DNA from: Schmidtea polychroa
Taxonomy: Eukaryota
Direction of reading: 5' to 3'
Length of the DNA: 64,000 nucleotides
Assembly (NCBI GenBank): GCA_044892525.1
Contig: CM097886.1
Location: 88,102,001-88,166,000, forward strand
Within the stretch, counting starts at the first letter, position 1; every line of letters begins with the position of its first letter. Both the position numbers and the translations under genes were made by a program. Shown here one piece after another: positions 3-25,855 of the stretch. The notes beneath the pieces were generated by a model, which saw only the letters and a program-made list of their open reading frames with translations, had not been told where the DNA came from and searched no databases.

Positions 3-431
3 AACCAGAAATTCCGTCTGTTTGAAACAAGTAATAAATATTGCACTCCAGAGATGTGCCAGCAAATTTCTCTAATAATAACTAAATTAAAATTAATTGT
101 TAACCAAATCAATGTAAAAGAAACAGCCGAAACCAATTGCGATATTGACAATCCAACTACCAACAATGATGTTTTGGACCCTATCGTTGTCATAGAAGAA
201 ATCAACTGTATGAAATGTAATAACATCCTTGAAAAATTCATTTTGGCCAGAGAAGGAATGAATGTTAACATTTGTGAAAACTGTTTATTTGACGCCATTT
301 CCACTGATCAATCAAATTCTAGTCAAGTCAATCCAATCCCTACAGAGACTATTGAAGAACCTCTCACAAAGAAATCTGCTACAAAATCGCGAGCTACGAC
401 ACTAAAAAAACAATCATCGAAGACCAAATGA
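3..431 (+). CDS. ORF1 C-terminal part (copy 1), includes C4 zinc finger
   Basis: Matches the last ~143 codons of the 845-aa ORF1 of copy 2; ends at TGA 429-431. Confidence 0.85.
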   Translation, partial: NQKFRLFETSNKYCTPEMCQQISLIITKLKLIVNQINVKETAETNCDIDNPTTNNDVLDPIVVIEEINCMKCNNILEKFILAREGMNVNICENCLFDAISTDQSNSSQVNPIPTETIEEPLTKKSATKSRATTLKKQSSKTK

Positions 432-436
432 AGATG

Positions 437-497
437 TGTGCCTGCATCAGCTCAAGCGTCTGCCGTTCCCTCTAATGAGACTGATGCAGAGAGCACA
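437..497 (+). promoter_or_regulatory. Stem-loop 3' of the ORF1 UGA, candidate readthrough stimulator (present in all 8 copies)
   Basis: TGTGC 437-441/GCACA 493-497, CTGCATCAG 442-450/CTGATGCAG 481-489, CTCA 451-454/TGAG 476-479; 33/61 GC in an AT-rich element. The function is inferred. Confidence 0.65.
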
Positions 498-3400
498 ATA
501 GATAATTACTATTTACCAATTGACGATTTTGATCCTGAAATGTGGTTCTCTGATAATGATATTGATTGGTATCTTGAAAACCATATCGACAATCCAATGC
601 ATGGATACATCAAATGCTTCATCGTTAATATTCTATGCTCGAATATTCAAGAAGAAATTGTTGCAATTCCACAGTCAATTACCAATGCTGAAATGATTTT
701 TTGTCCACTTAATATAAACAATTCCCATTGGATTCTTTTTGTATACTGTAAGAAATCAAATTCATCTTACTTTATTGATCCAATTTTTAATAACCGAAAT
801 AATCTAATCAACAAACAAATGGCTCTTAAAATGAATATTGCACTAAATAGATTTTTCAACCTCAAGATAGCAGTGTCATATCATCCGCATACAAATCTTC
901 AATATCAAAATAACAACTTTGACTGTGGTCCATTCACTTGCGCTTATGCAGTGATAATCAGTAAAGATTGGAACAGCTTTCCTGATGGATTCATTGAAGA
1001 AATAAGACGAAATGTTCATCGATATCAGAAACACTTGGTTAATGGTGCACCAAATTTAATTGGAGGTGCTAAAAACAATTTAAATATGGCAACAATCAAT
1101 TTCAAGAAGGCTATCGCTAAATCTAAAACTACAAATAATAATTTAAACATTACTAAAATTCTCAACAACCAAGCGCCATGTGTGTCATCACTAATTGGTA
1201 AATATTATAAAGAGAATTCTAAAATCTTGGTTTTATCTGCCAATTTAACATCCAATTTAATTGCGCAAAATGACTCTTTTATAGCCGACAATGTCACCTT
1301 TAAACAATTTAAAGGAATCGATCACATTCTTGGTGTCATTCCAAAATTTAAAGATTGGTGTCTTTTCATATATTCCAGCAAACTTAACCGTAGCTACATT
1401 TTTGATTTTAATTATAGAAATATTGATGAGAGATTGATTGAAATTGGTGAAAAGATGACCGATTATCTCAATCAATTTTGTCTTAATCGAAAAATTAAAT
1501 TCATAGCTGATCATCGAATCTCGCATCCTTCCTTTCACTCTAATGACAATCAATACTTCGCAAGTTCCTTTATTGTGTTTTTTGAGAAATTTGTCTTTGA
1601 AAGACTCTTGGATTATGATAAAGTATATGATACACTTGGTGAATTAAAATCTCAGTCGTGCATTGAAATTTCTCCCAACTTTAATTTAATCAACGGTAAA
1701 ATAACTGATAAAATTATTAATGAATATTTTATGAACCTAAAATTATCGAATAATTATATTCTCCTAAACAGAACTTTGTCTGCTGCAATTTCAGATGATT
1801 GTACTCAATACTTAAATGATTTTTTAAACATTGAGGACATGATGAAGGCAAATGTAATCTTTGCAATAATTTCTCCTCCCAAGGCCCATGAATTGCTGTT
1901 GGTAATTGATTACGACACAGACGAACATTATTTTCTTAGTCCAGTGACCAATGATTTGAATGTGTTTTCTAAAGCTTTCTCTTATAACATTGTGCTCAAA
2001 ATTAATGAGCTAAGACAAAGTAAAGGGCGTTCAATGACAATTGGCCACTGCCCACATGATATAAGAGGTTCTGGTTTATTTAGCAAAATATTAATTTGTG
2101 CATTTATCAGAAACTACACTCAAGATAAATCTCTTGAAAATATTAACTTGACTGAAATTTCTGAAATAATCAACTCTCTAGTTCCAATAGTTGATAATAA
2201 TGACATTGTCAAAATTGAGAGACGTGGAAAATTGAAAATTGCTAATTCTTTGAAACTAACTTTGAAGCAACGCAAAGATAGAATTGATGAGCTTTTAACT
2301 ACATTGTCTAACTCTAATGTTGATGAAATTATCTCTACTATTCTGGCAAATATTCCTCATCTAGAAAATTTGCAGGATCAAGAATTTCGAGAGCCATATC
2401 TTGGGAAAAATCACAATAAACCTAAAAAATTCAACAATTCTACTGAATTTCTGAAAAATATGAAAAAGACTGTAAACAGAATTTTAGGTAATCAGAGCGA
2501 AAAAGCTGAACCACCATTTCAGGAAATTATAAACACTTTCACTCATCAAGATACTTTACCTGGAAGTTGGAACAACGTTTTAAACTTTAGTAAAATCTCG
2601 AAAAGCTTACTTGAATTAGAAATTACTACGCCAATGGAAATTCTTTCCAATCTTCAGGAAGCTGATAATTCTACGCCCGGACTTGATAATGTATATTATA
2701 AAGATCTTCTGTTACTTGATCCAGATTGTAAGCTTCTAGCGTTACTTTTCAACAAAGTCATTCAACTGAAATCTATCCCTACAAGTTGGAAAACTTTTAA
2801 AACAATATTAATTCCGAAACCTGATAAAAATGACCAATACCATAAAATATCTTCATGGCGACCAATCGCATTACTGTCAGTGATTTACAAAGTTTTCGCT
2901 TCAGTTCTTGCAACTCGTCTTAGTTCATGGATTAAAGAAAATAATCTGCTGCATATTGGCCAAAAGGGTGGTTCAGAATACGAAGGATGTATTGAACACA
3001 ACTCAATTCTCTCTGCGATTGTCGAGCATTCAAAATATAGTAAATCTTCACCTTTAGCAATAGCATGGCTTGACATCAAAGACGCTTTCGGAAGTGTTCC
3101 ACACGAATACATGTGGACATTGTTAAGATATATGAACGTTGGTGAAAACTTTGTGAATATCCTGAAATTACTTTATACAGATACGAGCTCTTTTTATCGC
3201 TGTAACAAAATGCAGACACCAAATATTCCAATAAAGAAAGGTGTAAAACAAGGCTGCCCGATCTCTATGATTCTGTTTGCAATAGCTATTAATCCGGTTC
3301 TTGAAGCTATTACCGCATCTAACATTACACCTTTTATGATAGGCTCTTCTCAAGTACAAGTGTTAGCTTATGCTGATGACATTGCACTTATTGCAACTAG

Positions 3401-5033: not shown

Positions 5034-5382
5034 TTAAAATAAATTGGTTTTCAACATAGGAAAATAATTAAATTTAAAACTTTTATTAATTTGATTATTA
5101 AAACAAACCAAATTTAAATTTCATTAAAAAAAATAAACTAATTATTAAAGAAACTTTCATTTTTTCGAGATAAATATTCTGCGACAAAGCAAATTTAAGA
5201 ATTTAGATCTTCAATCTACCAAAGACAAGTCGCAATGCCGGATGATGAAATCCGATGAGAGTGATCAGAGATTCCAGCAGATGAAGTTAATATGTGAATA
5301 TTTGCTTATGGACAACTCCATGTAGAGCTGATTATCTGTTAAAAACAATATTCAAATTTGTTATATTTAATAAATGTTTAAT
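5034..5382 (+). promoter_or_regulatory. Element 3' UTR with hairpin cluster and AATAAA (5369-5374); no poly(A) tail
   Basis: 347-349 bp in all 7 complete 3' ends; several inverted repeats at 5180-5340. Confidence 0.7.
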
Positions 5383-5436
5383 TAGCGCGTCAGTCTCATA
5401 ATCTGAAGGTCGTGAGTTCGATCCTCACTCGGGGCA
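5383..5436 (+). pseudogene. 5'-truncated tRNA-Met (nt 20-73) at element 3' junction
   Basis: Lacks nt 1-19 including the A box. Confidence 0.92.
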
Positions 5437-5453
5437 TAATGTTTTGGATTTTT
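5437..5453 (+). terminator. Pol III T-tract terminator (TTTT then TTTTTT) after tRNA; repeated after every tRNA unit
   Basis: taatgTTTTggaTTTTTTc directly follows A73. Confidence 0.75.
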
Positions 5454-5598
5454 TCAAAAATTTTCAATTTTGCTATTCTTAGTTCTACAAAGCAGTTCAA
5501 AACCCAACTTTTCTACATCATTTCGACAATAAATCATCAATATTTTGACTTGAATAAAATAAAATGAACAAGTAAAGAAAAGTGAAAATCAAATTAAC

Positions 5599-5671
5599 GC
5601 CTCGATAGCGCAGTAGGTAGCGCGTCAGTCTCATAATCTGAAGGTCGTGAGTTCGATCCTCACTCGGGGCA
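5599..5671 (+). tRNA. tRNA-Met(CAT), elongator type
   Basis: 73-nt cloverleaf, GCCTCGA/TCGGGGC acceptor stem, CAT anticodon, T31-T39 opposition, TTCGATC T-loop, A and B boxes. Confidence 0.96.
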
Positions 5672-5839
5672 TAATGTTTTGGATTTTTTCAAAAATTTTC
5701 AATTTTGCTATTCTTAGTTCTACAAAGCAATTTGTTTTCAAAACCCAACTTTTCTACATCATTTCGACAATAAATCATCAATATTTTGACTTGAATAAAA
5801 TAAAATGAACAAGTAAAGAAAAGTGAAAATCAAATTAAC

Positions 5840-5912
5840 GCCTCGATAGCGCAGTAGGTAGCGCGTCAGTCTCATAATCTGAAGGTCGTGAGTTCGATCC
5901 TCACTCGGGGCA
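5840..5912 (+). tRNA. tRNA-Met(CAT)
   Basis: Consensus copy. Confidence 0.96.
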
Positions 5913-6045
5913 TAATGTTTTGGATTTTTTCAAAAATTTTCAATTTTGCTATTCTTAGTTCTACAAAGCAATTCGTTTTCAAAACCCAACTTTTCTACAT
6001 CATTTCGACAATAAATCATCAATATTTTGACTTGAATAAAATAAA

Positions 6046-8583
6046 ATGACTAACGGAGAAAACAAGATGATGCAATCGCCTGACGCAATGCATCAACAAG
6101 ATATGCACACTGGAGTTCAATCAACGACTGCAGAAGGATTATGTAATTATGCAATTGATATGAAGAAACTTCAGAAATTATTCCAATATCAATTGCAATC
6201 AAATCAAGCTCTTTTGGATTTCTTCAGTCAATTCAAAGCTGGATTTCATATGCCTTCCATGGAGAATTCAATGAACAATGTCCTTCCAAACAAGCCGGAA
6301 AATCAGTTTCAGAATTTCGAGAAACGTTTGGATTTAATGGAGATTTCATTCTCAAAGAAGCTTGAAAGGTTAGAGTGTTTATCTTTGAATTTTGGGGGTT
6401 TCTTTAATAATTTAAATAATTTCAATAAATTTTCTTTAAATAAAGATTTTTTCCATTTTAAAGATAATAAAATTAATGAAATTTCAAATTTAGATAATTG
6501 TAATTTTAATAATTCATCAATTGTCAATAAGGATTTTAATATAGAGTTTGATAAATTTCCTTTAAATAAAAATTCTTGTAATGTTAATAATTCAACTTCT
6601 GATAAAAATCTCAATATTAATGTGAATAACGATTTAAATAAGGATAGTGCAAATTTCGATAATTTTAAAATTTCAATAAATAATAATACACGTTTTGACA
6701 ATCCTAAAGTGTTTGTTTCCAAACCGATAATAAGTAATAAAAGTTTTGATTTTAAGACTTTTATTCGTATTTTAACAAAAAAAGAGCGAAAACAGCTCTA
6801 TAATAAGTTTCCAACTTTGATTCCTTTAACTAAAATTAAGGAATCAAAGAATAAATATTTAAAATTAAATAAAGTTTTATCTGGGGAGGAATTTAATACC
6901 AATCCTTTAGGTTTAGATAATTTTAAATGTTTTCTTTATAGGAATTTTAATTTCTGTGTTGAGTTTCATATAAGTAGTTTTTTAAATGAAAACTCAACCG
7001 TTAAACCTGTCTCTTATAAAAAGAAAATTTTTTTGTCTGAACATAATATTGTAAAGACTTTTCCTAATTTTTCTAATTATATAGCAGCACCAACTTCAAT
7101 TAAAAGATTTTTATTTAATCTTTCGCCTGAGCTTTCTGAAACAGTTTCTATTACAGATTGTAATCATAGAGAAAATAAAATTAATAAAATCATTTCTTCT
7201 TTGATTAAACAAGATAAACTCCCAAATTATCTGGTAAAATCAAAAATTAAATATCAAAAGGGTGAGTTTATATTGTTAGATTTGACAAACCCAAATATAA
7301 CATCCAAGATAAATAACGATTTCACATCATCAACATTTTCCGAACTCTCTCGTACCCAGATGAAATCTCTCTACTCATCTTATCCTTCTCTTAAAGAGAT
7401 TATGTTTGTTGAGAATCCTGACTCAAAATCATCTTCAATTATTAAGTTGATTGAATCTTTAAAAATCGATAATGTGTTTCCTGAAGATATCTTTTTTGAA
7501 GGGGGTAAATTCTTTCAATCTGATATTAAACACAAAGAACCCAATTCATTTCCTGACATAATGTTTAATCTTGGGTTATTTGATCTAATAAACATGGCAA
7601 AAGATGATGTTGAATTAAAATCAATTTTGACTAAAACAGATTGTCACTTTAAAATTGTTGAGATAGTATTTTATCTAAATTACTTGGGTTTGGTTGGATC
7701 CTTAAAATTTTCTCAAAATCAAACTTATTCTGATTATGTTGTGAACTATATTCGAAATTGTTGTTTATTAAATTCACTCTGTTCGCTTGAAGATCTTTCT
7801 CTTCTCTCGCTTGAAAATTTTGAAAGTTGGGCTTCTGAAATTATTCAAAGGATTCCAAACTCGTCTTTTTATTATACAAATTGTCAAGAAAAACTCTTGA
7901 AATTAAAACAATGGAAAATTTCTGGGGAAATTAAAAAGATCCATAACGTAATATCTCCAGAAACTATAGCATGTGTTAATAGTTTTCTTGATCTTGTTGA
8001 CGAAACCTTTCCCAATAAATTTCAAAACAATAATATCCTTACTAAATTAATGGAAACAATTAATAATGAGAAATTAATAGATGACACATATGGCGTTAAA
8101 GCGAAGCGATTTATTTATTTTTTGTTGAGAGATACAAAGAAATTGATGGATAAAAACCAGAAATTCCGTCTGTTTGAAACAAGTAATAAATATTGCACTC
8201 CAGAGATGTGCCAGCAAATTTCTCTAATAATAACTAAATTAAAATTAATTGTTAACCAAATCAATGTAAAAGAAACAGCCGAAACCAATTGCGATATTGA
8301 CAATCCAACTACCAACAATGATGTTTTGGACCCTATCGTTGTCATAGAAGAAATCAACTGTATGAAATGTAATAACATCCTTGAAAAATTCATTTTGGCC
8401 AGAGAAGGAATGAATGTTAACATTTGTGAAAACTGTTTATTTGACGCCATTTCCACTGATCAATCAAATTCTAGTCAAGTCAATCCAATCCCTACAGAGA
8501 CTATTGAAGAACCTCTCACAAAGAAATCTGCTACAAAATCGCGAGCTACGACACTAAAAAAACAATCATCGAAGACCAAATGA
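6046..8583 (+). CDS. ORF1, 845 aa, unknown function (coiled-coil-like N-term, Asn-rich tract, C4 finger, basic tail)
   Basis: 2.5-kb open frame in very AT-rich DNA, conserved across copies; C772-x2-C-x18-C-x2-C797. Confidence 0.88.
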   Translation: MTNGENKMMQSPDAMHQQDMHTGVQSTTAEGLCNYAIDMKKLQKLFQYQLQSNQALLDFFSQFKAGFHMPSMENSMNNVLPNKPENQFQNFEKRLDLMEISFSKKLERLECLSLNFGGFFNNLNNFNKFSLNKDFFHFKDNKINEISNLDNCNFNNSSIVNKDFNIEFDKFPLNKNSCNVNNSTSDKNLNINVNNDLNKDSANFDNFKISINNNTRFDNPKVFVSKPIISNKSFDFKTFIRILTKKERKQLYNKFPTLIPLTKIKESKNKYLKLNKVLSGEEFNTNPLGLDNFKCFLYRNFNFCVEFHISSFLNENSTVKPVSYKKKIFLSEHNIVKTFPNFSNYIAAPTSIKRFLFNLSPELSETVSITDCNHRENKINKIISSLIKQDKLPNYLVKSKIKYQKGEFILLDLTNPNITSKINNDFTSSTFSELSRTQMKSLYSSYPSLKEIMFVENPDSKSSSIIKLIESLKIDNVFPEDIFFEGGKFFQSDIKHKEPNSFPDIMFNLGLFDLINMAKDDVELKSILTKTDCHFKIVEIVFYLNYLGLVGSLKFSQNQTYSDYVVNYIRNCCLLNSLCSLEDLSLLSLENFESWASEIIQRIPNSSFYYTNCQEKLLKLKQWKISGEIKKIHNVISPETIACVNSFLDLVDETFPNKFQNNNILTKLMETINNEKLIDDTYGVKAKRFIYFLLRDTKKLMDKNQKFRLFETSNKYCTPEMCQQISLIITKLKLIVNQINVKETAETNCDIDNPTTNNDVLDPIVVIEEINCMKCNNILEKFILAREGMNVNICENCLFDAISTDQSNSSQVNPIPTETIEEPLTKKSATKSRATTLKKQSSKTK

Positions 8584-11500
8584 AGATGTGTGCCTGCATC
8601 AGCTCAAGCGTCTGCCGTTCCCTCTAATGAGACTGATGCAGAGAGCACAATAGATAATTACTATTTACCAATTGACGATTTTGATAGTGAAATGTGGTTC
8701 TCTGATAATGATATTGATTGGTATCTTGAAAACCATATCGACAATCCAATGCATGGATACATCAAGTGTTTCATCGTTAATATTCTATGCTCGAATATTC
8801 AAGAAGAAATTGTTGCAATTCCACAGTCAATTACCAATGCTGAAATGATTTTTTGTCCACTTAATATAAACAATTCCCATTGGATTCTTTTTGTATACTG
8901 TAAGAAATCGAATTCATCTTACTTTATTGATCCAATTTTTAATAACAGAAATAATCTAATCAACAAACAAATGGCTCTTAAAATGAATATTGCACTAAAT
9001 AGATTTTTCAACCTCAAGATAGCAGTGTCATATCATCCGCATACAAATCTTCAATATCAAAATAACAATTTTGACTGTGGTCCATTCACTTGCGCTTATG
9101 CAGTGATAATCAGTAAAGATTGGAACAGCTTTCCTGATGGATTCATTGAAGAAATAAGACGAAATGTTCATCGATATCAGAAACACTTGGTTAATGGTTC
9201 ACCAAATTTAATTGGAGGTGCTAAAAACAATTTAAATATGGCAACAATCAATTTCAAGAAGGCTATCACTAAATCTAAAACTACAAATAATAATTTAAAC
9301 ATTACTAAAATTCTCAACAACCAAGCGCCATGTGTGTCATCACTAATTGGTAAATATTATAAAGAGAATTCTAAAATCTTGGTTTTATCTGCCAATTTAA
9401 CATCCAATTTAATTGCGCAAAATGACTCTTTTATAGCCGACAATGTCACCTTTAAACAATTTAAAGGAATCGATCACATTCTTGGTGTCATTCCAAAATT
9501 TAAAGATTGGTGTCTTTTCATATACTCCAGTAAGCTTAACCGTAGCTACATTTTTGATTTTAATTATAGAAATATTGATGAGAGATTGATTGAAATTGGT
9601 GAAAAGATGACCGATTATCTCAATCAATTTTGTCTTAATCGAAAAATTAAATTCATAGCTGATCATCGAATCTCGCATCCTTCCTTTCACTCTAATGACA
9701 ATCAATACTTTGCAAGTTCCTTTATTGTGTTTTTTGAGAAATTTGTCTTTGAAAGACTCTTGGATTATGATAAAGTATATGATACACTTGGTGAATTAAA
9801 ATCTCAGTCGTGCATTGAAATTTCTCCCAACTTTAATTTAATCAACGGTAAAATAACTGATAAAATTATTAATGAATATTTTATGAACCTAAAATTATCG
9901 AATAATTATATTCTCCTAAACAGAACTTTGTCTGCTGCAATTTCAGATGATTGTACTCAATACTTAAATGATTTTTTAAACATTGAGGACATGATGAAGG
10001 CAAATGTAATCTTTGCAATAATTTCTCCTCCCAAGGCCCATGAATTGCTGTTGGTAATTGATTACGACACAGACGAACATTATTTTCTTAGTCCAGTGAC
10101 CAATGATTTGAATGTGTTTTCTAAAGCTTTCTCTTATAACATTGTGCTCAAAATTAATGAGCTAAGACAAAGTAAAGGGCGTTCAATGACAATTGGCCAC
10201 TGCCCACATGATATAAGAGGTTCTGGTTTATTTAGCAAAATATTAATTTGTGCATTTATCAGAAACTACACTCAAGATAAATCTCTTGAAAATATTAACT
10301 TGACTGAAATTTCTGAAATAATCAACTCTCTAGTTCCAATAGTTGATAATAATGACATTGTCAAAATTGAGAGACGTGGAAAATTGAAAATTGCTAATTC
10401 TTTGAAACTAACTTTGAAGCAACGCAAAGATAGAATTGATGAGCTTTTAACTACATTGTCTAACTCTAATGTTGATGAAATTATCTCTACTATTCTGGCA
10501 AATATTCCTCATCTAGAAAATTTGCAGGATCAAGAATTTCGAGAGCCATATCTTGGGAAAAATCACAATAAACCTAAAAAATTCAACAATTCTACTGAAT
10601 TTCTGAAAAATATGAAAAAGACTGTAAACAGAATTTTAGGTAATCAGAGCGAAAAAGCTGAACCACCATTTCAGGAAATTATAAACACTTTCACTCATCA
10701 AGATACTTTACCTGGAAGTTGGAACAACGTTTTAAACTTTAGTAAAATCTCGAAAAGCTTACTTGAATTAGAAATTACTACGCCAATGGAAATTCTTTCC
10801 AATCTTCAGGAAGCTGATAATTCTACGCCCGGACTTGATAATGTATATTATAAAGATCTTCTGTTACTTGATCCAGATTGTAAGCTTCTAGCGTTACTTT
10901 TCAACAAAGTCATTCAACTGAAATCTATCCCTACAAGTTGGAAAACTTTTAAAACAATATTAATTCCGAAACCTGATAAAAATGACCAATACCATAAAAT
11001 ATCTTCATGGCGACCAATCGCATTACTGTCAGTGATTTACAAAGTTTTCGCTTCAGTTCTTGCAACTCGTCTTAGTTCATGGATTAAAGAAAATAATCTG
11101 CTGCATATTGGCCAAAAGGGTGGTTCAGAATACGAAGGATGTATTGAACACAACTCAATTCTCTCTGCGATTGTCGAGCATTCAAAATATAGTAAATCTT
11201 CACCTTTAGCAATAGCATGGCTTGACATCAAAGACGCTTTCGGAAGTGTTCCACACGAATACATGTGGACATTGTTAAGACATATGAACGTTGGTGAAAA
11301 CTTTGTGAATATCCTGAAATTACTTTATACAGATACGAGCTCTTTTTATCGCTGTAACAAAATGCAGACACCAAATATTCCAATAAAGAAAGGTGTAAAA
11401 CAAGGCTGCCCGATCTCTATGATTCTGTTTGCAATAGCTATTAATCCGGTTCTTGAAGCTATTACCGCATCTAACATTACACCTTTTATGATAGGCTCTT

Positions 11501-13534
11501 CTCAAGTACAAGTGTTAGCTTATGCTGATGACATTGCACTTATTGCAACTAGCTCAACTGACCTCCAAAAGCTAATTGGCGTAGCTGTAAAAACTGCCAA
11601 TAATATTGGATTTGAATATCGCCCTGAAAAATGTGCATATATACAATACCCAAAACTAGAAACGGTCAGTGAAATCGTTGTCAACAATGATTTAATTAAA
11701 AAACTTGCTGGTAATGAATTTTACCAATACTTAGGAGTGCCAATAGGTGATAATAATGATCAAAGTCCCTATGAAATCGTCAGCCAAGTCATTGAAGATA
11801 CTAAAAAGATTGCTAACTCTGATCTCTATGGTTGGCAAAAGCTCAAAGCTTATAAAATCTTCCTGCATTCGCGCCTTATTTTCCCATTTAGAACTAGGGA
11901 AATTAAAACTAGTTCATTAACATCTCCTAGTAGTAACTCAAGGATAAATGTAAATAGTACTAGCCAATTGAGGAGCCATTTGAGGAAAATATTAAATTTA
12001 CCAAACCACTCTGAAATAAGTTATTTCTATAATGCCACTGAAAATGGTGGAGCTGGCTGTATTGACCTTCTTGATGAGTATCACACACAGTCGATTGTTT
12101 ACTTCTTCCGTTTACTAACATCAACTTGCGACTATTCAAAAAAGATAAACACTTTTTCACTCTTGTCTGTGACAAGTCCAAGACTCGGAATCAAAGAACC
12201 AACTCTCAGTCAAAGCTTGGAATGGGTTAATGGAAAAGAAAGCAAATTAAATCATAGTGGTAGTAAAACTCGCTTCTACCGATTGCGTGCATCAATTGCA
12301 TATTTCAATCGAGTTCACAACATTAAAATTTCGTTCGAAACTTTCAAACAAAATCCTTCGATTCGGCTCACTACTTCATTAACTGGCACTCGCATATTAT
12401 TACCAAAATTAAGAAAAGCATTATCAAAGATTCTCCATTCTGCTCTTCAAGATTCGTATCTCGAAAAGTGGGAGAAGAGTAATCAAAGTAATCTAATTGT
12501 ATCTGCTCTCAAACTTTGTCCATTTGTCAACAAACTAATCTTTCGTAGTGACTTGACAGACTTTGAATGGAATTTCATTCATCGAGCTCGAACAAATACA
12601 CTCTCTACATTTGCAAAGCCACATAAAACTGGCGAAGACCGCCTTTGTCGTAGGTGTAAATCTGAAGATGAGACAATTTTACATGTACTCCAAACTTGTA
12701 GAATCAATCAATCATTAGCAACTAATCGACATAATGCTTGCTTGGAAAAAATTAAAGATGCACTTAAAAATCCTGAACTCTTGGTTGTCACTGATCATAA
12801 ATGTTCTCTTGTACCGACTTCCAACGAACGGGTTGATCTTTTAATAACCAATACCGAGAGAAAAACGATTTTACTAGTAGACATGAAATGTCCAATTGAT
12901 TCTGTAATTAATTTTGAGCGAGTCGACAAATTAAATATGGAAAAATATGATAAATTAAAAACAGATATACAAACAGTTAAACCTGATTACAAAGTTGAAT
13001 TGTTCACATGCATCATGGGTTCCTTGGGATCAATTGAACCAAAAACTTCTGATCTTTTATTAAAAATGGGAATTCCACAAACAAAAATCAAAGGTTTGAT
13101 GAAGGAATGTGCAATAAGTAACATTGCACATTCGGCAAAGATTTGGTATTTTCATTGTAATGGAAAGCTTCCAAACTTTGAATAATTAAAATAAATTGGT
13201 TTTCAACATAGGAAAATAATTAAATTTAAAACTTTTATTAATTTGATTATTAAAACAAACTAAATTTAAATTTCATTAAAAAAAATAAACTAATTATTAA
13301 AGAAACTTTCATTTTTTCGAGATAAATATTCTGCGACAAAGCAAATTTAAGAATTTAGATCTTCAATCTACCAAAGACAAGTCGCAATGCCGGATGATGA
13401 AATCCGATGAGAGTGATCAGAGATTCCAGCAGATGAAGTTAATATGTGAATATTTGCTTATGGACAACTCCATGTAGAGCTGATTATCTGTTAAAAACAA
13501 TATTCAAATTTGTTATATTTAATAAATGTTTAAT
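6050..13534 (+). mobile_element. Retrotransposon copy 2, full length (7485 bp), both ORFs intact
   Basis: Sequence diverges from the spacer after ATGA 6046-6049 and rejoins tRNA nt 20 at 13535. Confidence 0.95.
8590..13185 (+). CDS. ORF2 protease-RT-RLE (1531 aa), copy 2
   Basis: Same motifs as copy 1; in frame with ORF1 after TGA 8581-8583. Confidence 0.95.
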   Translation: MPASAQASAVPSNETDAESTIDNYYLPIDDFDSEMWFSDNDIDWYLENHIDNPMHGYIKCFIVNILCSNIQEEIVAIPQSITNAEMIFCPLNINNSHWILFVYCKKSNSSYFIDPIFNNRNNLINKQMALKMNIALNRFFNLKIAVSYHPHTNLQYQNNNFDCGPFTCAYAVIISKDWNSFPDGFIEEIRRNVHRYQKHLVNGSPNLIGGAKNNLNMATINFKKAITKSKTTNNNLNITKILNNQAPCVSSLIGKYYKENSKILVLSANLTSNLIAQNDSFIADNVTFKQFKGIDHILGVIPKFKDWCLFIYSSKLNRSYIFDFNYRNIDERLIEIGEKMTDYLNQFCLNRKIKFIADHRISHPSFHSNDNQYFASSFIVFFEKFVFERLLDYDKVYDTLGELKSQSCIEISPNFNLINGKITDKIINEYFMNLKLSNNYILLNRTLSAAISDDCTQYLNDFLNIEDMMKANVIFAIISPPKAHELLLVIDYDTDEHYFLSPVTNDLNVFSKAFSYNIVLKINELRQSKGRSMTIGHCPHDIRGSGLFSKILICAFIRNYTQDKSLENINLTEISEIINSLVPIVDNNDIVKIERRGKLKIANSLKLTLKQRKDRIDELLTTLSNSNVDEIISTILANIPHLENLQDQEFREPYLGKNHNKPKKFNNSTEFLKNMKKTVNRILGNQSEKAEPPFQEIINTFTHQDTLPGSWNNVLNFSKISKSLLELEITTPMEILSNLQEADNSTPGLDNVYYKDLLLLDPDCKLLALLFNKVIQLKSIPTSWKTFKTILIPKPDKNDQYHKISSWRPIALLSVIYKVFASVLATRLSSWIKENNLLHIGQKGGSEYEGCIEHNSILSAIVEHSKYSKSSPLAIAWLDIKDAFGSVPHEYMWTLLRHMNVGENFVNILKLLYTDTSSFYRCNKMQTPNIPIKKGVKQGCPISMILFAIAINPVLEAITASNITPFMIGSSQVQVLAYADDIALIATSSTDLQKLIGVAVKTANNIGFEYRPEKCAYIQYPKLETVSEIVVNNDLIKKLAGNEFYQYLGVPIGDNNDQSPYEIVSQVIEDTKKIANSDLYGWQKLKAYKIFLHSRLIFPFRTREIKTSSLTSPSSNSRINVNSTSQLRSHLRKILNLPNHSEISYFYNATENGGAGCIDLLDEYHTQSIVYFFRLLTSTCDYSKKINTFSLLSVTSPRLGIKEPTLSQSLEWVNGKESKLNHSGSKTRFYRLRASIAYFNRVHNIKISFETFKQNPSIRLTTSLTGTRILLPKLRKALSKILHSALQDSYLEKWEKSNQSNLIVSALKLCPFVNKLIFRSDLTDFEWNFIHRARTNTLSTFAKPHKTGEDRLCRRCKSEDETILHVLQTCRINQSLATNRHNACLEKIKDALKNPELLVVTDHKCSLVPTSNERVDLLITNTERKTILLVDMKCPIDSVINFERVDKLNMEKYDKLKTDIQTVKPDYKVELFTCIMGSLGSIEPKTSDLLLKMGIPQTKIKGLMKECAISNIAHSAKIWYFHCNGKLPNFE

Positions 13535-15161: not shown

Positions 15162-17698
15162 ATGACTAACGGAGAAAACAAGATGATGCAATCGCCTGAC
15201 GCAATGCATCAACAAGATATGCACACTGGAGTTCAATCAACGACTGCAGATGGATTATGTAATTATGCAATTGATATGAAGAAACTTCAGAAATTATTCC
15301 AATTTCAATTGCAATCAAATCAGGCTCTTTTGGATTTCTTCAGTCAATTCAAAGCTGGATTTAATATGCCTTCCATGGAGAATTCAATGAACAATGTCCT
15401 TCCAAACAAGCCGGAAAATCAGTTTCAGAATTTCGAGAAACGTTTGGATTTAATGGAGATTTCATTCTTAAAGATGCTTGAAAGGTTAGAGTGTTTATCT
15501 TTAAATTTTGAAAGTTTCTTTAATAATTTAAATAATTTTGATAAATTTTCTTTAAATAAAGATTTTTTCCATTTTAAAGATAATAAAATTAATGAAATTT
15601 TAATTTAGATAATTGTAATTTTAATAATTCATCAAATGTCAATAAGGATTTTAATATAGAGTTTGATAAATTTTCTTTAAATAAAAATTCTTGTAATGTT
15701 AATAATTCGCTTTCTGATAAAAATCTTAATATTAATGTGAATAACGATTTAAATAAGGATAGTCAAAATTTCGATAATATTAAAATTTCAATAAATAATA
15801 ATACACGTTTTGACAATCCTAAAGTGTTTGTTTCCCAACCGAAAATAAGTAATAAAAGTTTTGATTTTAAGACTTTTATTCGTATTTTAACAAAAAAAGA
15901 GCGAAAACAGCTCTATAATAAGTTTCCAACTTTGATTCCTTTAACTAAAATTAAGGAATCAAAGAATAAATATTTAAAATTAAATAAAATTTTATCTGGG
16001 GAGGAATTTAATGCCAATCCTTTAGGTTTAGATAATTTTAAATGTTTTTTTTATAGGAATTTTAATTTCTGTGTTGAGTTTCATTTAGATAGTTTTTTAA
16101 ATGTAAACTCAACCGTTAAACCTGTCTCTTATAAAAAGAAAATTTTTCTGTCTGAACATAATATTGTAAAGACTTATCCTAATTTTTCTAATTATATAGC
16201 AGCACCAACTTCAATTAAAAGATTTTTATTTAATCTTTCGCCTGAGCTTTCTGAAACAGTTTCTATTACAGACTGTAATCATAGAGAAAATAAAATTAAT
16301 AAAATTATTTCTTCGTTGATTAAACAAGATAAACTCCCAAATTATCTGGTTAAATCAAAAATTAAATATCAAAAGGGTGAGTTCATATTGTTAGATTTGA
16401 CAAACCCAAATATAACATCCAAGATAAATAACGATTTCACATCATCAACATTTTCCGAACTATCTCGTACCCAGATGAAAACTCTCTACTCATCTTATCC
16501 TTCTCTTAAAGAGATTATGTTTGTTGAAAATCCTGACTCAAAATCATCTTCAATTATTAAGTTGATTGAATCTTTAAAAATCGATAATGTGTTTCCTGAA
16601 GATATCTTTTTTGAAGGGGGTAAATTCTTTCAACCTGATATTAAACACAAAGAACCCAATTCATTTCCTGACATAATGTTTAATCTTGGGTTATTTGATC
16701 TAATAAACATGGAAAAAGATGATGTTGAATTAAAATCAATTTTGACTAAAACAGATTGTCACTTTAAAATTGTTGAGATAGTATTTTATCTAAATTACTT
16801 GGGTTTGGTTGGATCCTTAAAATTTTCTCAAAATCAAACTTATTCTGATTATGTTGTCAACTATATTCGAAATTGTTGTTTATTAAATTCACTCTGTTCG
16901 CTTGAAGATCTTTCTCTTCTCTCGCTTGAAAATTTTGAATGTTGGGCTTCTGAAATTATTCAAAGGATTCCAAACTCGTCTTTTTATTATACAAATTGTC
17001 AAGAAAAGCTCTTGAAATTAAAACAATGGAAAATTTCTGGGGAAATTAAAAAGATCCATAACGTAATTTCTCCAAAAACAATAGCATGTGTTAATAGTTT
17101 TCTTGATCTTGTTGACGAAACCTTTCCCAATAAATTTCAAAACAATAATATCCTTACTAAATTAATGGAAACAATTAATAATGAGAAATTAATAGATGAC
17201 ACATATGGCGTTAAAGCGAAGCGATTTATTTATTTTTTGTTGAGAGATACAAAGAAATTTAAGGATAAAAACCAGAAATTCCGTCTGTTTGAAACAAGCA
17301 ATAAATATTGCACTCCAGAGATGTGCCAGCAAATTTCTCTAATAATAACTAAATTAAAATTAATTGTTAACCAAATCAATGTAACAGAAACAGCCGAAAC
17401 CAATTGCGATATTGACAATCAAACTACCAACAGTAATGTTATGGACCCTATCGTTGTCATTGAAGAAATCAACTGTATGAAATGTAATAACATCCTTGAA
17501 AAATTCATTTTGGTCAGAGAAGGAATGAATGTTAACATTTGTGAAAACTGTTTATTTGACGCCATTTCCACTGATCAATCAAATTCTAGTCAAGTCAATC
17601 CAATCCCTACAGAGACTATTGAAGAACCTCTCACAAAGAAATCTGCTACAAAATCGCGAACTACGACACTAAAAAAACAATCATCGAAATCCAAATGA
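15162..17698 (+). pseudogene. ORF1 with 1-bp deletion at ~15601
   Basis: atttTAattt versus atttCAAattt in intact copies; split into 148-aa and 653-aa ORFs. Confidence 0.85.
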
Positions 17699-20600
17699 AG
17701 ATGTGTGCCTGCATCAGCTCAAGCGTCTGCCGTTCCCTTTAATGAGACTGATGCAGAGAGCACAATAGATAATTACTATTTAACAATTGACGATTTTGAT
17801 AGTGAAATGTGGTTCTCTGATAATGATATTGATTGGTATCTTGAAAACCATATCGACAATCCAATGCATGGATACATCAAGTGTTTCATCGTTAATATTC
17901 TATGCTCGAATATTCAAGAAGAAATTGTTGCAATTCCACAGTCAATTACCAATGCTGAAATGATTTTTTGTCCACTTAATATAAACAATTCCCATTGGAT
18001 TCTTTTTGTATACTGTAAGAAATCGAATTCATCTTACTTTATTGATCCAATTTTTAATAACAGAAATAATCTAATCAACAAACAAATGGCTCTTAAAATG
18101 AATATTGCACTAAATAGATTTTTCAACCTCAAGATAGCAGTGTCATATCATCCGCATACAAATCTTCAATATCAAAATAACAATTTTGACTGTGGTCCAT
18201 TCACTTGCGCTTATGCAGTGATAATCAGTAAAGATTGGAACAGCTTTCCTGATGGATTCATTGAAGAAATAAGACGAAATGTTCATCGATATCAGAAACA
18301 CTTGGTTAATGGTTCACCAAATTTAATTGGAGGTGCTAAAAACAATTTAGATATGGCAACAATCAATTTCAAGAAGGCTATCGCTAAATCTAAAACTACA
18401 AATAATAATTTAAACATTACTAAAGTTCTCAACAACCAAGCGCCATGTGTGTCATCACTAATTGATAAATATTATAAAGAGAATTCTAAAATCTTGGTTT
18501 TATCTGCCAATTTAACATCCAATTTAATTGCGCAAAATGACTCTTTTATAGCCGACAATGTCACCTTTAAACAATTTAAAGGAATCGATCACATTCTTGG
18601 TGTCATTCCAAAATTTAAAGATTGGTGTCTTTTCATATACTCCAGTAAGCTTAACCGTAGCTACATTTTTGATTTTAATTATAGAAATATTGATGAGAGA
18701 TTGATTGAAATTGGTGAAAAGATGACCGATTATCTCAATCAATTTTGTCTTAATCGAAAAATTAAATTCATAGCTGATCATCGAATCTCGCATCCTTCCT
18801 TTCACTCTAATGACAATCAATACTTTGCAAGTTCCTTTATTGTGTTTTTTGAGAAATTTGTCTTTGAAAGACTCTTGGATTATGATAAAGTATATGATAC
18901 ACTTGGTGAATTAAAATCTCAGTCGTGCATTGAAATTTCTCCCAACTTTAATTTAATCAACGGGAAAATAACTGATAAAATTATTAATGAATATTTTATG
19001 AACCTAAAATTATCGAATAATTATATTCTCCTAAACAGAACTTTGTCTGCTGCAATTTCAGATGATTGTACTCAATACTTAAATGATTTTTTAAACCTTG
19101 AGGACATGATGAAGGCAAATGTAATCTTTGCAATAATTTCTCCTCCCAAGGCCCATGAATTGCTGCTGGTAATTGATTACGACACAGACGAACATTATTT
19201 TCTTAGTCCAGTGACCAATGATTTGAATGTGTTTTCTCAAGCTTTCTCTTATAACATTGTGCTCAAAATTAATGAGCTACGACAAAGTAAAGGGCGTGCA
19301 ATGACAATTGGTCACTGCCCACATGATATAAGAGGTTCTGGTTTATTTAGCAAAATATTAATTTGTGCATTTATCAGAAACTACACTCAAGATAAATCTC
19401 TTGAAAATATTAACTTGACTGAAATTTCTGAAATAATCAACTCTCTAGTTCCAATGGTTGATAATAATGACATTGTCAAAATTGAGAGACGTGGAAAATT
19501 GAAAATTGCTAATTCTTTGAAACTAACTTTGAAGCAACGCAAAGATAGAATTGATGAGCTTTTAACTACATTGTCTAACTCTAATGTTGATGAAATTATT
19601 TCTACTATTCTGGCAAATATTCCTCATCTAGAAAATTTGCAGGATCAAGAATTTCGAGAGCCATATCTTGGGAAAAATCACAATAAACCTAAAAAATTCA
19701 ACAATTCTACTGAATTTCTGAAAAATATGAAAAAAACTGTAAACAGAATTCTAGGTAATCAGAGCGAAAAAGCTGAACCACCATTTCAGGAAATTATAAA
19801 CACTTTCACTCATCAAGATACTTTACCTGGAAGTTGGAACAACGTTTTAAACTTTAGTAAAATCTCGAAAAGCTTACTTGAATTAGAAATTACTACGCCA
19901 ATGGAAATTCTTTCCAATCTTCAGGAAGCTGATAATTCTACGCCGGGACTTGATAATGTATATTATAAAGATCTTCTGTTACTCGATCCAGATTGTAAGC
20001 TTCTAGCGTTACTTTTCAACAAAATCATTCAACTGAAATCTATCCCTACAAGTTGGAAAACTTTTAAAACAATATTAATTCCGAAACCTGATAAAAATGA
20101 CCAATACCATAAAGTATCTTCATGGCGACCAATCGCATTACTGTCAGTGATTTACAAAGTTTTCGCTTCAGTTCTTGCAACTCGTCTTAGTTTATGGATT
20201 AAAGAAAATAATCTGCTGCATATTGGCCAAAAGGGTGGCTCAGAATACGAAGGATGTATTGAACACAACTCAATTCTCTCTGCGATTGTCGAGCATTCAA
20301 AATATAGTAAATCTTCACCTTTAGCAATAGCCTGGCTTGACATCAAAGACGCTTTCGGAAGTGTTCCACACGAATACATGTGGACATTGTTAAGACATAT
20401 GAACGTTGGTGAAAACTTTGTGAATATCCTGAAATTACTTTATACAGATACGAGCTCGTTTTATCGCTGCAACAAAATGCAGACACCGAATATTCCAATT
20501 AAGAAAGGTGTAACACAAGGTTGCCCGATCTCTATGATTCTGTTTGCAATAGCTATTAATCCGGTTCTTGAAGCTATTACCGCATCTAACATTACACCTT

Positions 20601-23317: not shown

Positions 23318-25855
23318 ATGACTAACGAAGAAAACAAGATGATGCAATCGCCTTATGCAATGCATCAACAAGATATGCACACTGGAGTTCAATCAACGAC
23401 TGCAGAAGGATTATGTAATTATGCAATTGATATGAAGAAACTTCAGAAATTATTCCAATTTCAATTGCAATCAAATCAGGCTCTTTTGGATTTCTTCAGT
23501 CAATTCAAAGCTGGATTTAATATGCCTTCCATGGAGAATTCAATGAACAATGTCCTTCCAAACAAGCCGGAAAATCAGTTTCAGAATTTCGAGAAACGTT
23601 TGGATTTAATGGAGATTTCATTCTCAAAGATGCTTGAAAGGTTAGAGTGTTTATCTTTAAATTTTGAGAGTTTCTTTAATAATTTAAATAATTTTGATAA
23701 ATTTTCTTTAAATAAAGATTTTTTCCATTTTAAAGATAATAAAATTAATGAAATTTCAAATTTAGATAATTGTAATTTTAATAATTCATCAAATGTCAAT
23801 AAGGATTTTAATATAGAGTTTGATAAATTTCCTTTAAATAAAAATTCTTGTAATGTTAATAATTCGCTTTCTGATAAAAATCTTAATATTAATGTGAATA
23901 ACGATTTAAATAAGGATAGTCAAAATTTCGATAATATTAAAATTTCAATAAATAATAATACACGTTTTGACAATCCTAAAGTGTTGGTTTCCAAACCGAA
24001 AATAAGTAATAAAAGTTTTGATTTTAAGACTTTTATTCGTATTTTAACAAAAAAAGAGCGAAAACAGCTCTATGATAAGTTTCCAACTTTGATTCCTTTA
24101 ACTAAAATTAAGGAATCAAAGAATAAATATTTAAAATTAAATAAATTTTTATCTGGGGAGGAATTTAATGCCAATCCTATAGGCTTAGATAATTTTAAAT
24201 GTTTTTTTTATAGGAATTTTAATTTCTGTGTTGAGTTTTATATAGATAGTTTTTTAAATGAAAACTCAACCGTTAAACCTGTCTCTTATAAAAAGAAACT
24301 TTTTCTGTCTGAACATAATATTGTAAAGACTTTTCCTAATTTTTCTAATTATATAGCAGCACCAACTGCAATTAAAAGATTTTTATTTAACCTTTCGCCT
24401 GAGCTTTCTGAAACAGTTTCTATTACAGACTGTAATCATAGAGAAAATAAAATTAATAAAATCATTTCTTCTTTGATTAAACAAGAAAAGCTCCCAAATT
24501 ATTTGGTTAAATCAAAAATTAAATATCAAAAGGGTGAGTTTATATTGTTAGATTTGACAAACCCAAATATAACATCCAAGATAAATAACGATTTCACATC
24601 ATCAACATTTTCCGAACTATCTCGTACCCAGATGAAAACTCTCTACTCATCTTATCCTTCTCTTAAAGAGATTATGTTTGTTGAGAATCCTGACTCAAAA
24701 TCATCTTCAATTATTAAGTTGATTGAATCTTTAAAAATCGATAATGTGTTTCCTGAAGATATCTTTTTTGAAGGGGGTAAATTCTTTCAATCTGATATTA
24801 AACACAAAGAACCCAATTCATTTCCTGACATAATGTTTAATCTTGGGTTATTTGATCTAATAAACATGGCAAAAGATGATGTTGAATTAAAATCAATTTT
24901 GACTAAAACAGATTGTCACTTTAAAATTGTTGAGATAGTATTTTATCTAAATTACTTGGGTTTGGTTGGATCCTTAAAATTTTCTCAAAATCAAACTTAT
25001 TCTGATTATGTTGTGAACTATATTCGAAATTGTTGTTTATTAAATTCACTCTGTTCGCTTGAAGATCTTTCTCTTCTCTCACTTGAAAATTTTGAATGTT
25101 GGGCTTCTGAAATTATTCAAAGGATTCCAAACTCGTCTTTTTATTATACAAATTGTCAAGAAAAACTCTTGAAATTAAAACAATGGAAAATTTCTGGGGA
25201 AATTAAAAAGATCCATAACGTAATTTCTCCAGAAACAATAGCATGTGTTAATAGTTTTCTTGATCTTGTTGACGAAACCTTTCCCAATAAATTTCAAAAC
25301 AATAATATCCTTACTAAATTAATGGAAACAATTAATAATGAGAAATTAATAGATGACACATATGGCGTTAAAGCGAAGCGATTTATTTATTTTTTGTTGA
25401 GAGATACAAAGAAATTTAAGGATAAAAACCAGAAATTCCGTCTGTTTGAAACAAGCAATAAATATTGCACTCCAGAGATGTGCCAGCAAATTTCTCTAAT
25501 AATAACTAAATTAAAATTAATTGTTAACCAAATCAATGTAACAGAAACAGCCGAAACCAATTGCGATATTGACAATCAAACTACCAACAGTAATGTTATG
25601 GACCCTATCGTTGTCATTGAAGAAATCAACTGTATGAAATGTAATAACATCCTTGAAAAATTCATTTTGGTCAGAGAAGGAATGAATGTTAACATTTGTG
25701 AAAACTGTTTATTTGACGCCATTTCCACTGATCAATCAAATTCTAGTCAAGTCAATCCAATCCCTACAGAGACTATTGAAGAACCTCTCACAAAGAAATC
25801 TGGTACAAAATCGCGAACTACGACACTAAAAAAACAATCATCGAAATCCAAATGA
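23318..25855 (+). CDS. ORF1, 845 aa, copy 4
   Basis: Intact frame. Confidence 0.88.
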   Translation: MTNEENKMMQSPYAMHQQDMHTGVQSTTAEGLCNYAIDMKKLQKLFQFQLQSNQALLDFFSQFKAGFNMPSMENSMNNVLPNKPENQFQNFEKRLDLMEISFSKMLERLECLSLNFESFFNNLNNFDKFSLNKDFFHFKDNKINEISNLDNCNFNNSSNVNKDFNIEFDKFPLNKNSCNVNNSLSDKNLNINVNNDLNKDSQNFDNIKISINNNTRFDNPKVLVSKPKISNKSFDFKTFIRILTKKERKQLYDKFPTLIPLTKIKESKNKYLKLNKFLSGEEFNANPIGLDNFKCFFYRNFNFCVEFYIDSFLNENSTVKPVSYKKKLFLSEHNIVKTFPNFSNYIAAPTAIKRFLFNLSPELSETVSITDCNHRENKINKIISSLIKQEKLPNYLVKSKIKYQKGEFILLDLTNPNITSKINNDFTSSTFSELSRTQMKTLYSSYPSLKEIMFVENPDSKSSSIIKLIESLKIDNVFPEDIFFEGGKFFQSDIKHKEPNSFPDIMFNLGLFDLINMAKDDVELKSILTKTDCHFKIVEIVFYLNYLGLVGSLKFSQNQTYSDYVVNYIRNCCLLNSLCSLEDLSLLSLENFECWASEIIQRIPNSSFYYTNCQEKLLKLKQWKISGEIKKIHNVISPETIACVNSFLDLVDETFPNKFQNNNILTKLMETINNEKLIDDTYGVKAKRFIYFLLRDTKKFKDKNQKFRLFETSNKYCTPEMCQQISLIITKLKLIVNQINVTETAETNCDIDNQTTNSNVMDPIVVIEEINCMKCNNILEKFILVREGMNVNICENCLFDAISTDQSNSSQVNPIPTETIEEPLTKKSGTKSRTTTLKKQSSKSK

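Follow-up and report, generated by a model that had tools for sequence, protein, structure and literature searches.

The window, which is the whole 64-kb stretch of DNA analysed here, is a tandem array of eight copies of one non-LTR retrotransposon that are 98–99.7% identical and are separated by 241-bp tRNA-Met(CAT) gene repeats (Table 1). All element 3′ ends in the window (6/6) are joined to the same position of tRNA-Met and all 5′ ends (7/7) to the same position of the tRNA-array spacer. At each insertion, about 60 bp of the target (the end of the spacer and tRNA nucleotides 1–19) is missing. Both ORFs are whole only in copies 2 and 4, and the window copies have been partly multiplied by array duplication, as seen from one ORF1 break that copies 6–8 have in common. 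Due to this shared break and their high identity, the eight copies are not independent observations.

ORF1 is 845 aa long when counted from its first ATG (copies 2 and 4). This ATG sits in sequence identical to the tRNA-array spacer (window 6035–6052 and six other 5′ junctions), and the ORF1 start codon may therefore come from the target; more ATGs follow within 15 codons. For the ORF1 protein, neither a Pfam match above the cut-off nor an Atlas match was found, and comparison of its predicted model (pLDDT 72, pTM 0.45) with the PDB gave no match at E ≤ 0.001. Within ORF1, the conserved core (window 6718–8280) is predicted with moderate confidence to fold into helical domains, with one motif repeated. 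The ORF2 protein matches Peptidase_C48 (E 1.5e-9), with the Ulp1 residues His99, Asp116 and Cys165, as well as RVT_1 (E 8e-30). Behind the RT, the motifs CRRC..H...C (1355–1372) and RVDL..VDMK (1416–1435) are visible, which we take to be a CCHC knuckle and a restriction-like endonuclease motif. Two degenerate protease-like repeats were seen by eye after the active Ulp1 domain and the Gly-Gly (window 1100–2200). Furthermore, the 3′ UTR of the window element (5175–5382) has short blocks in common with the 3′ UTRs of the related loci L032, L040, L043, L070, L077, L087 and L091, namely a GCCGG...CCGA hairpin, CCA(T/A)G..GA and TTGTTAT..TAATAAA. From their sequence, these blocks look like conserved RNA structure; a search of Rfam returned nothing in the 3′ UTR or at the hairpin described below.

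By its anatomy, that is its domains and its tRNA target, the window element is R5/LIN-like (NeSL clade), the RT tree being made up of unnamed rows only. This anatomy makes a planarian-type flatworm the likely host. Known systems are compared here as they are described in the accessible parts of the papers cited. LIN15_SM and LIN25_SM, which belong to the R5/LIN lineage within the NeSL clade, also insert site-specifically in tRNA genes and have a similar AT-rich 3′ end (compared by eye), and LIN15 joins the tRNA at about the same D-arm position (PMC4640811). These families also combine RT with a restriction-like endonuclease, and the Ulp1 protease of the window element is as in NeSL and Utopia-1_TSP (PMC4640811). 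Unlike the LIN families, for which the accessible text of PMC4640811 does not list tRNA-Met, the window element has this gene as its target, and its sisters use Arg, Ala, Thr, Asp/Gly and Lys tRNAs and 5S rRNA; target arrays with Gly/Gln and Pro-containing tRNAs also occur among the relatives. The 1538-codon subfamily (L070:8704–9747; also L071–L076 and L082–L086) inserts in 5S rRNA gene arrays, with some copies near tRNA-Lys; the LIN targets given in that same text do not include 5S (PMC4640811). No mention of the ORFs and of stop-codon recoding was found in the main text of PMC4640811 as far as accessible.

Table 1. Features of the window (positions counted from its first nucleotide).
Feature	Position	Strand	Remarks
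Out-of-frame 15-codon ORF	428..475	+	From AUG overlapping the stop; AUG absent in subfamily L091
In-frame UGA between ORF1 and ORF2, copy 1	429..431	+	Context AAA-UGA-AGA; likely readthrough codon
ORF2 of copy 1, 1533 codons	432..5033	+	Hairpin-coded linker, Ulp1 protease, Gly-Gly 211–212, two protease-like repeats, RT, presumed CCHC knuckle and restriction-like endonuclease motif
Stem-loop, copy 1	437..497	+	Basal helix 437–441/493–497, 3-nt 3′ bulge, core 442–450/481–489, upper helix 451–454/476–479, 21-nt loop
GUG, ORF2 codon 3	438..440	+	Paired in stem foot; invariant in 11/11 aligned junctions; candidate reinitiation start
First in-frame ATG (codon 37)	540..542	+	Not conserved: codons 37–317 across subfamilies
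Gly-Gly behind Ulp1 protease	1062..1067	+	In 11/11 hairpin-clade rows; possible self-cleavage site
3′ UTR of copy 1	5034..5382	+	SECIS-like element not found; blocks in common with other subfamilies
tRNA-Met(CAT) tandem array, 241-bp unit	5383..6049	+	Element 3′ end joins tRNA gene at about nt 20
ORF1 of copy 2, 845 aa from first ATG	6046..8583	+	Ends in UGA 8581–8583; family or fold match not found
ORF2 of copy 2	8584..13185	+	Hairpin 8589–8649
UGA and hairpin, copy 3	17696..17764	+	Loop variant
UGA and hairpin, copy 4	25853..25921	+	Loop variant; both ORFs whole
UGA and hairpin, copy 5	36629..36697	+	
UGA and hairpin, copy 6	44303..44371	+	
UGA and hairpin, copy 7	51977..52045	+	
UGA and hairpin, copy 8	61096..61164	+	One stem mismatch

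As originally described, the junction between the two ORFs reads AAA TGA AGA TGT GTG CCT in 8/8 copies, with ORF2 in the frame of ORF1 (TGA at 429, 8581, 17696, 25853, 36629, 44303, 51977 and 61096). The ATGs at 428 and 434 belong to another frame, which ends at the TAA at 473–475. The first in-frame ATG, which had been placed at codon 36, is in fact codon 37 (540–542). The hairpin that was proposed to follow the stop was recovered with its stem of 5+9+4 bp, its 21-nt loop and its GC content of 54%, as opposed to 28% in ORF1 and 33% in ORF2, except that the basal 5 bp proved marginal. In a 400-nt context their pair probability is 0.3–0.5, compared with 0.96–1.0 for the upper 13 bp, and four of them are common to the subfamilies, so that the conserved spacer from the UGA is 6 nt to the stem foot and 10 nt to the firm core (5 nt to the foot of the window copies). 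In agreement with the original description, the change in copies 3 and 4 (472 C>T) falls in the loop and that in copy 8 (488 A>T) in the stem. The hairpin folds with −26.4 kcal/mol (z −3.7; 1/200 shuffles as good) and has the lowest energy of 1413 70-nt windows over ORF1 and ORF2, the next best elsewhere being −21.3; by z-score alone the junction is not the most extreme part of the element, other windows being lower in a coarse 177-window scan. No conserved pseudoknot was found at the junction. A long-range pairing of the loop motif UCUG(C/U) with the 3′ UTR was considered and dropped, its partner being visible in only 3/10 3′ UTRs, as was a role for the mini-ORF overlapping the stop as AUGA, given that L091 is without that AUG. 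The loop codon TCT (458–460, within window 452–460) is invariant in 11/11 genomic rows and is without a clear partner.

Relatives of the element were sampled by genome searches in which 150, 150 and 79 rows were scored of about 1000 candidates each. Across 20 relative loci, an in-frame TGA lies behind at least 567 open codons in 14 and behind 185 in one, the remaining five being broken copies. A pattern search identified 103 genome copies of the window junction, and all of the junction copies fetched (30/30) contain AAA-TGA-AGA, with a stem change in two. The alignment comprises 11 junctions that stand for 8 subfamilies (ORF2 52–80% identical; ORF1 35–53%, where measured). Broken or truncated rows with a rearranged junction or a stop from a later mutation (L034–36, L046, L048, L055/56, L067, L068, L078, L079, L093/94, L102 and L104) were left out before counting, as was the host-type protease L066; in four of the left-out rows the nearest upstream stop is TAA or TAG.

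The UGA, the frame and the stem arms are kept in 11/11 aligned junctions and thus in all 8 subfamilies. The UGA, GUGC-CUGCAUCA and UGAUGCAG-ANN-GCAC are nearly invariant, and the loop and both flanks vary. Pairing is present in 140/143 stem cells, compared with 8–38% in slid controls, and the fold z behind the stop ranges from −1.7 to −5.6, with flanks never below −1.9. Fourfold sites are invariant in 4/4 cases within the stem as opposed to 2/145 in the rest of ORF2 (Fisher p 8e-7, relatedness ignored). Furthermore, the end of the stem is fixed 65 nt behind the stop in every row, and the linker from the stop to the protease Trp has six lengths, all of them in frame. The stop context is UGA-AG(A/G), with UGA-AAA in one row, so that A follows the stop (+4) in 11/11. 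ORF2 itself ends in UAA in 10/11 hairpin rows, and some ORF2s end in TGA. Subfamilies have also recombined around the junction: the ORF1 end and hairpin of one are joined to the ORF2 of another, and the switch point lies within the hairpin or close to it (L069:3470–3560; L043 compared with L087), and part of the arm invariance may therefore be due to homogenisation. Two 5′-truncated elements, L093 and L094, start at about 3475 (element orientation), where the hairpin has its 3′ foot, as if reverse transcription had stalled there in one event that gave several copies.

Homologues lacking frame continuity and hairpin had been named as evidence that would speak against the prediction; the outcome is in its favour, with 8 subfamilies keeping UGA, frame and stem, and a family without the hairpin also being without the stop at this place. 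These findings bear on the idea that tandem amplification of dead copies has spread a nonsense mutation, or that UGA is reassigned throughout the host. The array duplication seen in the window fits such a spread, but the same stop recurs in 8 subfamilies that differ in their targets and have whole ORFs before and after it. A changed code, in turn, is at odds with one TGA against 15–19 TGG in about 2350 codons and with the ORF2s that end in TGA. Neither form of this idea is seriously credible.

Covariation, which had been suggested as a check, gave a divided answer. In genomic DNA, no compensatory double change was found among the subfamilies in 13 stem pairs. The hairpin-coded peptide was, however, also found in seven proteins from public assemblies (profile and protein search), six of which have the same spacing, and these imply three compensatory double changes: U-A to A-U (P0001, P0021), G-C to A-U (P0027) and U-A to C-G (P0030). 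One mismatch is kept in 4/7 proteins, and 24/40320 arm permutations score as well as the observed pairing. The compensations were read from amino acids, that is from first and second codon positions with the best codon choice. They are taken as support and not as proof, given that the choice of arms was made by eye, among rows that are related, and that the changes are read from proteins. Among these other-source sequences, P0083 has one uninterrupted ORF, in which about 1100 N-terminal residues precede Ulp1 and RT; its 2421 aa are close to the 2379 aa that ORF1, the residue at the stop (X) and ORF2 of copy 2 would total together. In P0033, an ORF1-like zinc-finger continues into the hairpin peptide with no stop between them, and this protein appears decayed. 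In a weak search among proteins of 1480–4225 aa, no long fused form with an ORF1 alignment was found.

The stop occupies other positions in further members of the lineage. In the sister family L089/L097–L103, a homologous ORF1 (34% identity, E 2e-45) is fused to the protease, and both the stop and the hairpin peptide are absent there. Instead, UGA-CUC comes after the protease, a few codons ahead of where relatives have their Gly-Gly, and is followed by a whole 1299-aa ORF2 in 6/8 copies fetched; the first in-frame AUG of L100 is at codon 105 of its ORF2. A Pfam search of the genome, from which 18 loci were fetched, identified distant families whose RT is 32–39% identical and which form a separate clade with full support in the tree. 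Seven of these families have an in-frame UGA at other positions, always with C next (CUA, CUC, CGG or CAA). Five of these UGAs stand at the conserved Ulp1 Trp as UGA-CUA or UGA-CUC (L051, L057, L058, a second element in L058, and L060), and two lie far upstream as UGA-CAA (L053) and UGA-CGG (L059). L051 and L053 are intact to either side of the UGA; the other distant copies fetched are broken further on, and these breaks count against readthrough. Taken over all families outside the hairpin clade, +4 is C in 8/8, compared with about 18–22% of codons starting with C. A stem of its own is clearly significant only in L060 (z −5.3, 11-nt spacer) and marginal in L059; no significant stem was found in 6/8 UGA-C families or in L065. 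The L060 structure (L060:3848–3880) is a second, unrelated stem-loop 11 nt behind UGA-CUA and is kept in its relative L064. At the protease Trp position, families without the stop have CGA-CTA (L053), TCA-CTA (L068) or CTA-CTA (L059). The first two are one base from TGA-CTA and, by their sequence, are possible relics of a former readthrough site.

Initiation at AUG cannot be a general route to ORF2, because the position of the first in-frame AUG varies from codon 37 to codon 317 and, in 4/8 subfamilies, is past the catalytic His (codons 139, 152 and 317 in L040/L069, L070–74 and L077). No in-frame ATG is present within −6 to +30 of the UGA, all being out of frame in 11/11 rows. This leads to termination–reinitiation, in which ribosomes would stop at the UGA and restart with the aid of the hairpin at the GUG two codons on, or without a fixed codon, so that ORF2 would be a separate 1531-aa protein. 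Reinitiation at the GUG is the main rival, since SART1 likewise uses a downstream structure and the in-frame linker fits both readings: the invariant GUG counts against readthrough, four or five of the other-source proteins were called from this codon, and in-frame linker indels are explained equally well. SART1 and LINE-1 also have bicistronic RNAs, SART1 needs a structure downstream of its ORF1 stop, and start-codon changes are tolerated in calicivirus reinitiation (PMC5972666, PMC10275272). Unlike the present element, however, which has no in-frame AUG near the stop, SART1 has an AUG overlapping the stop at which ribosomes restart, and LINE-1, which reinitiates loosely, has a spacer of 63 nt to be crossed (PMC5972666, PMC10275272). 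A SART1-type in-frame AUG overlapping or adjoining the ORF1 stop is absent in 11/11 rows, although the GUG may substitute for it. The conservation of the GUG is explained by its pairing in the stem, and in all rows it has a pyrimidine at −3. Furthermore, reinitiation does not explain why, at four or more positions, only UGA is found as the stop and always in frame, when most ORF2s end in UAA. L059 and L089/L100 are without any of eight screened start or near-start codons in the first 12 codons. A restart would also lose the protease Trp in those families that have UGA in its place. Reinitiation is considered unlikely, and programmed readthrough of the UGA is very probably the best reading of the junction given the sequence and its conservation.

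If readthrough occurs, its rate could also be set by the UGA alone, the hairpin being kept for another job such as RNA binding by ORF1, template handling or a folding pause. Two features count against hairpin-driven readthrough, namely the +4 A in place of the usual C and the stem foot 5–6 nt from the stop, which is nearer than the stimulators of the tested viral cases, where 8 nt or more lie between stop and structure (PMC13517186). In addition, the L093/L094 truncation at the 3′ foot and the nearby switches of the recombinants suggest that the hairpin may act on the RT too. Yet the spacing between stop and stem is constant and that of the downstream linker is not, the family without this stop is also without the hairpin peptide, and +4 C families are mostly without a stem whereas +4 A families all have one. 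A basal rate with an unrelated hairpin is thus decidedly improbable, and the conserved fold suggests that the hairpin probably stimulates readthrough of the junction UGA.

A further alternative is that RNA processing bypasses the stop by A-to-I editing of the UGA, by cis-splicing, or by spliced-leader trans-splicing that provides an AUG in the linker. The spliced leaders of flatworms have AUG at their end (PMC12582326); at the junction, the stop is followed by AG in 10/11 rows, and an in-frame GAG is present at codon 16 in 10/11. However, use of the AG behind the stop would put the leader AUG out of frame, neither AG site matches UUNYAG, the acceptor reported from parasitic flatworms (PMC12582326), and the UGA lies outside the conserved stem. 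Transcript data were available from run X1, which is RNA, as it contains GT..AG joints on host genes that are absent in the DNA run X2. The depth of X1 over the junction region is 20–70 on single contigs, compared with 0–7 for most non-exonic host bins, and X1 shows that the element is transcribed. At the junction, the UGA is unchanged and no joint is present, and the one loose end is the ORF1 of a sister subfamily and not foreign. Under a rule of 31 letters on both sides no single X1 contig bridges the UGA; two contigs overlap across it by 30 letters. Runs X6 and X7 gave no match, which is not counted as evidence. The contigs drop rare forms and carry no strand, and with this reservation they argue mildly against editing or splicing as the main route. 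Bypass by RNA processing is very unlikely.

Alternatively, the UGA could encode selenocysteine, with the hairpin as a redefinition element and a SECIS in the 3′ UTR. Planarians do have selenoproteins (PMC3828610), the stop is always UGA, and the 3′ UTRs share the structured-looking blocks described above. Against this, Rfam found no SECIS in the window element or in 6 loci, a loose pattern scan gave one poor match in 10 3′ UTRs, and the UGA sits in a non-conserved linker, moves between families and does not correspond to Cys in relatives. Selenocysteine insertion is accordingly rated as extremely improbable.

Readthrough of this kind has several known counterparts. UGA-CUA and UGA-CGG are type II readthrough contexts, often with a stem 8–12 nt downstream, and in alphavirus nsP3–nsP4, Virgaviridae replicases and coltivirus VP9 a UGA before the polymerase is likewise followed closely by a 12–18 bp stem (PMC3159437, PMC13517186). 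Synonymous-site conservation of both arms is a further likeness to the type II viral signals, and the distant families described here have UGA-CUA or UGA-CGG themselves (PMC3159437, PMC13517186). In contrast, neither context occurs in the window clade, which has +4 A, a short 21-nt loop and a spacer of 5–6 nt to the foot (10 to the core) where type II signals have 8–12, and the putative signal is carried by a non-LTR retrotransposon and not by a virus. The UGAAGA hexamer of the window junction is identical to that of the retrovirus SSSV (PMC13517186). MuLV gag-pol, too, places a structural-type protein, a stop, a protease and RT in one frame (PMC3159437, PMC13517186), but uses UAG and a pseudoknot; the protease of the present element is Ulp1-like and not aspartic, and its ORF1 is without likeness to Gag. 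The original claim that such a strategy is unusual for non-LTR elements holds, with the caveat that readthrough was already suggested from consensus for the Paramecium group 3 non-LTR elements, which have ORF1 and ORF2 in one frame (PMC5405496). These, however, belong to an APE-type clade in a ciliate, and no stimulator, conservation test or experiment was found in the accessible text (PMC5405496).

In the mechanism that we propose, the element has one long reading frame with a single UGA that ribosomes would read through at a low rate. Near-cognate residues at UGA are Trp, Cys or Arg. For most ribosomes, translation would end there with the 845-aa ORF1 protein, and a minority would insert one of these residues and go on to make the 2379-aa ORF1–protease–RT–endonuclease polyprotein, so that the leaky UGA would keep ORF1 abundant and RT scarce. 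The firm stem core, which starts 10 nt past the UGA, may meet the mRNA entry channel and thereby raise readthrough, and the stem-loop would in this way offset the poor +4 base. Cleavage by the Ulp1 protease at the conserved Gly-Gly may then free the RT–endonuclease. In other families the leak would be supplied by the context, and in the hairpin clade by the stem-loop. The 8 subfamilies that keep UGA, frame and stem, together with the relocated UGA-C stops, support the reading of the junction from which we infer readthrough. On balance, the comparison of families somewhat favours a wider scenario, in which the whole site-specific non-LTR lineage depends on UGA readthrough for its RT, the stop has moved at least three times along one polyprotein, and UGA-C has been traded for UGA-A plus a stem-loop in the tRNA/5S-targeting clade.

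In the open literature searched, which consisted mostly of listings, no report of readthrough in R5, LIN or NeSL elements was found; the original R5 paper and the Repbase entries lie outside this scope and may already have remarked on the in-frame stop. The proposed mechanism is of a known kind, and its demonstration would be the first in this class of elements. How the second protein is made is known for few non-LTR elements; where tests exist, the route is reinitiation (SART1, LINE-1) or 2A skipping. On the readthrough model, gene callers start ORF2 at the wrong place, and copies of this type can be misfiled as broken. The signal is 70 nt long, which makes the readthrough model testable in a standard reporter, and natural controls are provided by the family without stop and hairpin, the UGA-C families without a stem, the family with UGA-CUA and its own stem, and the single-ORF relative. 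If the model is true, an efficient UGA-A signal would be added to the small set of structure-stimulated readthrough elements, and the families would form a natural series for what makes a stop leaky. The window element would then be the first LINE-class element with a defined, structure-stimulated readthrough signal of the gag-pol type.
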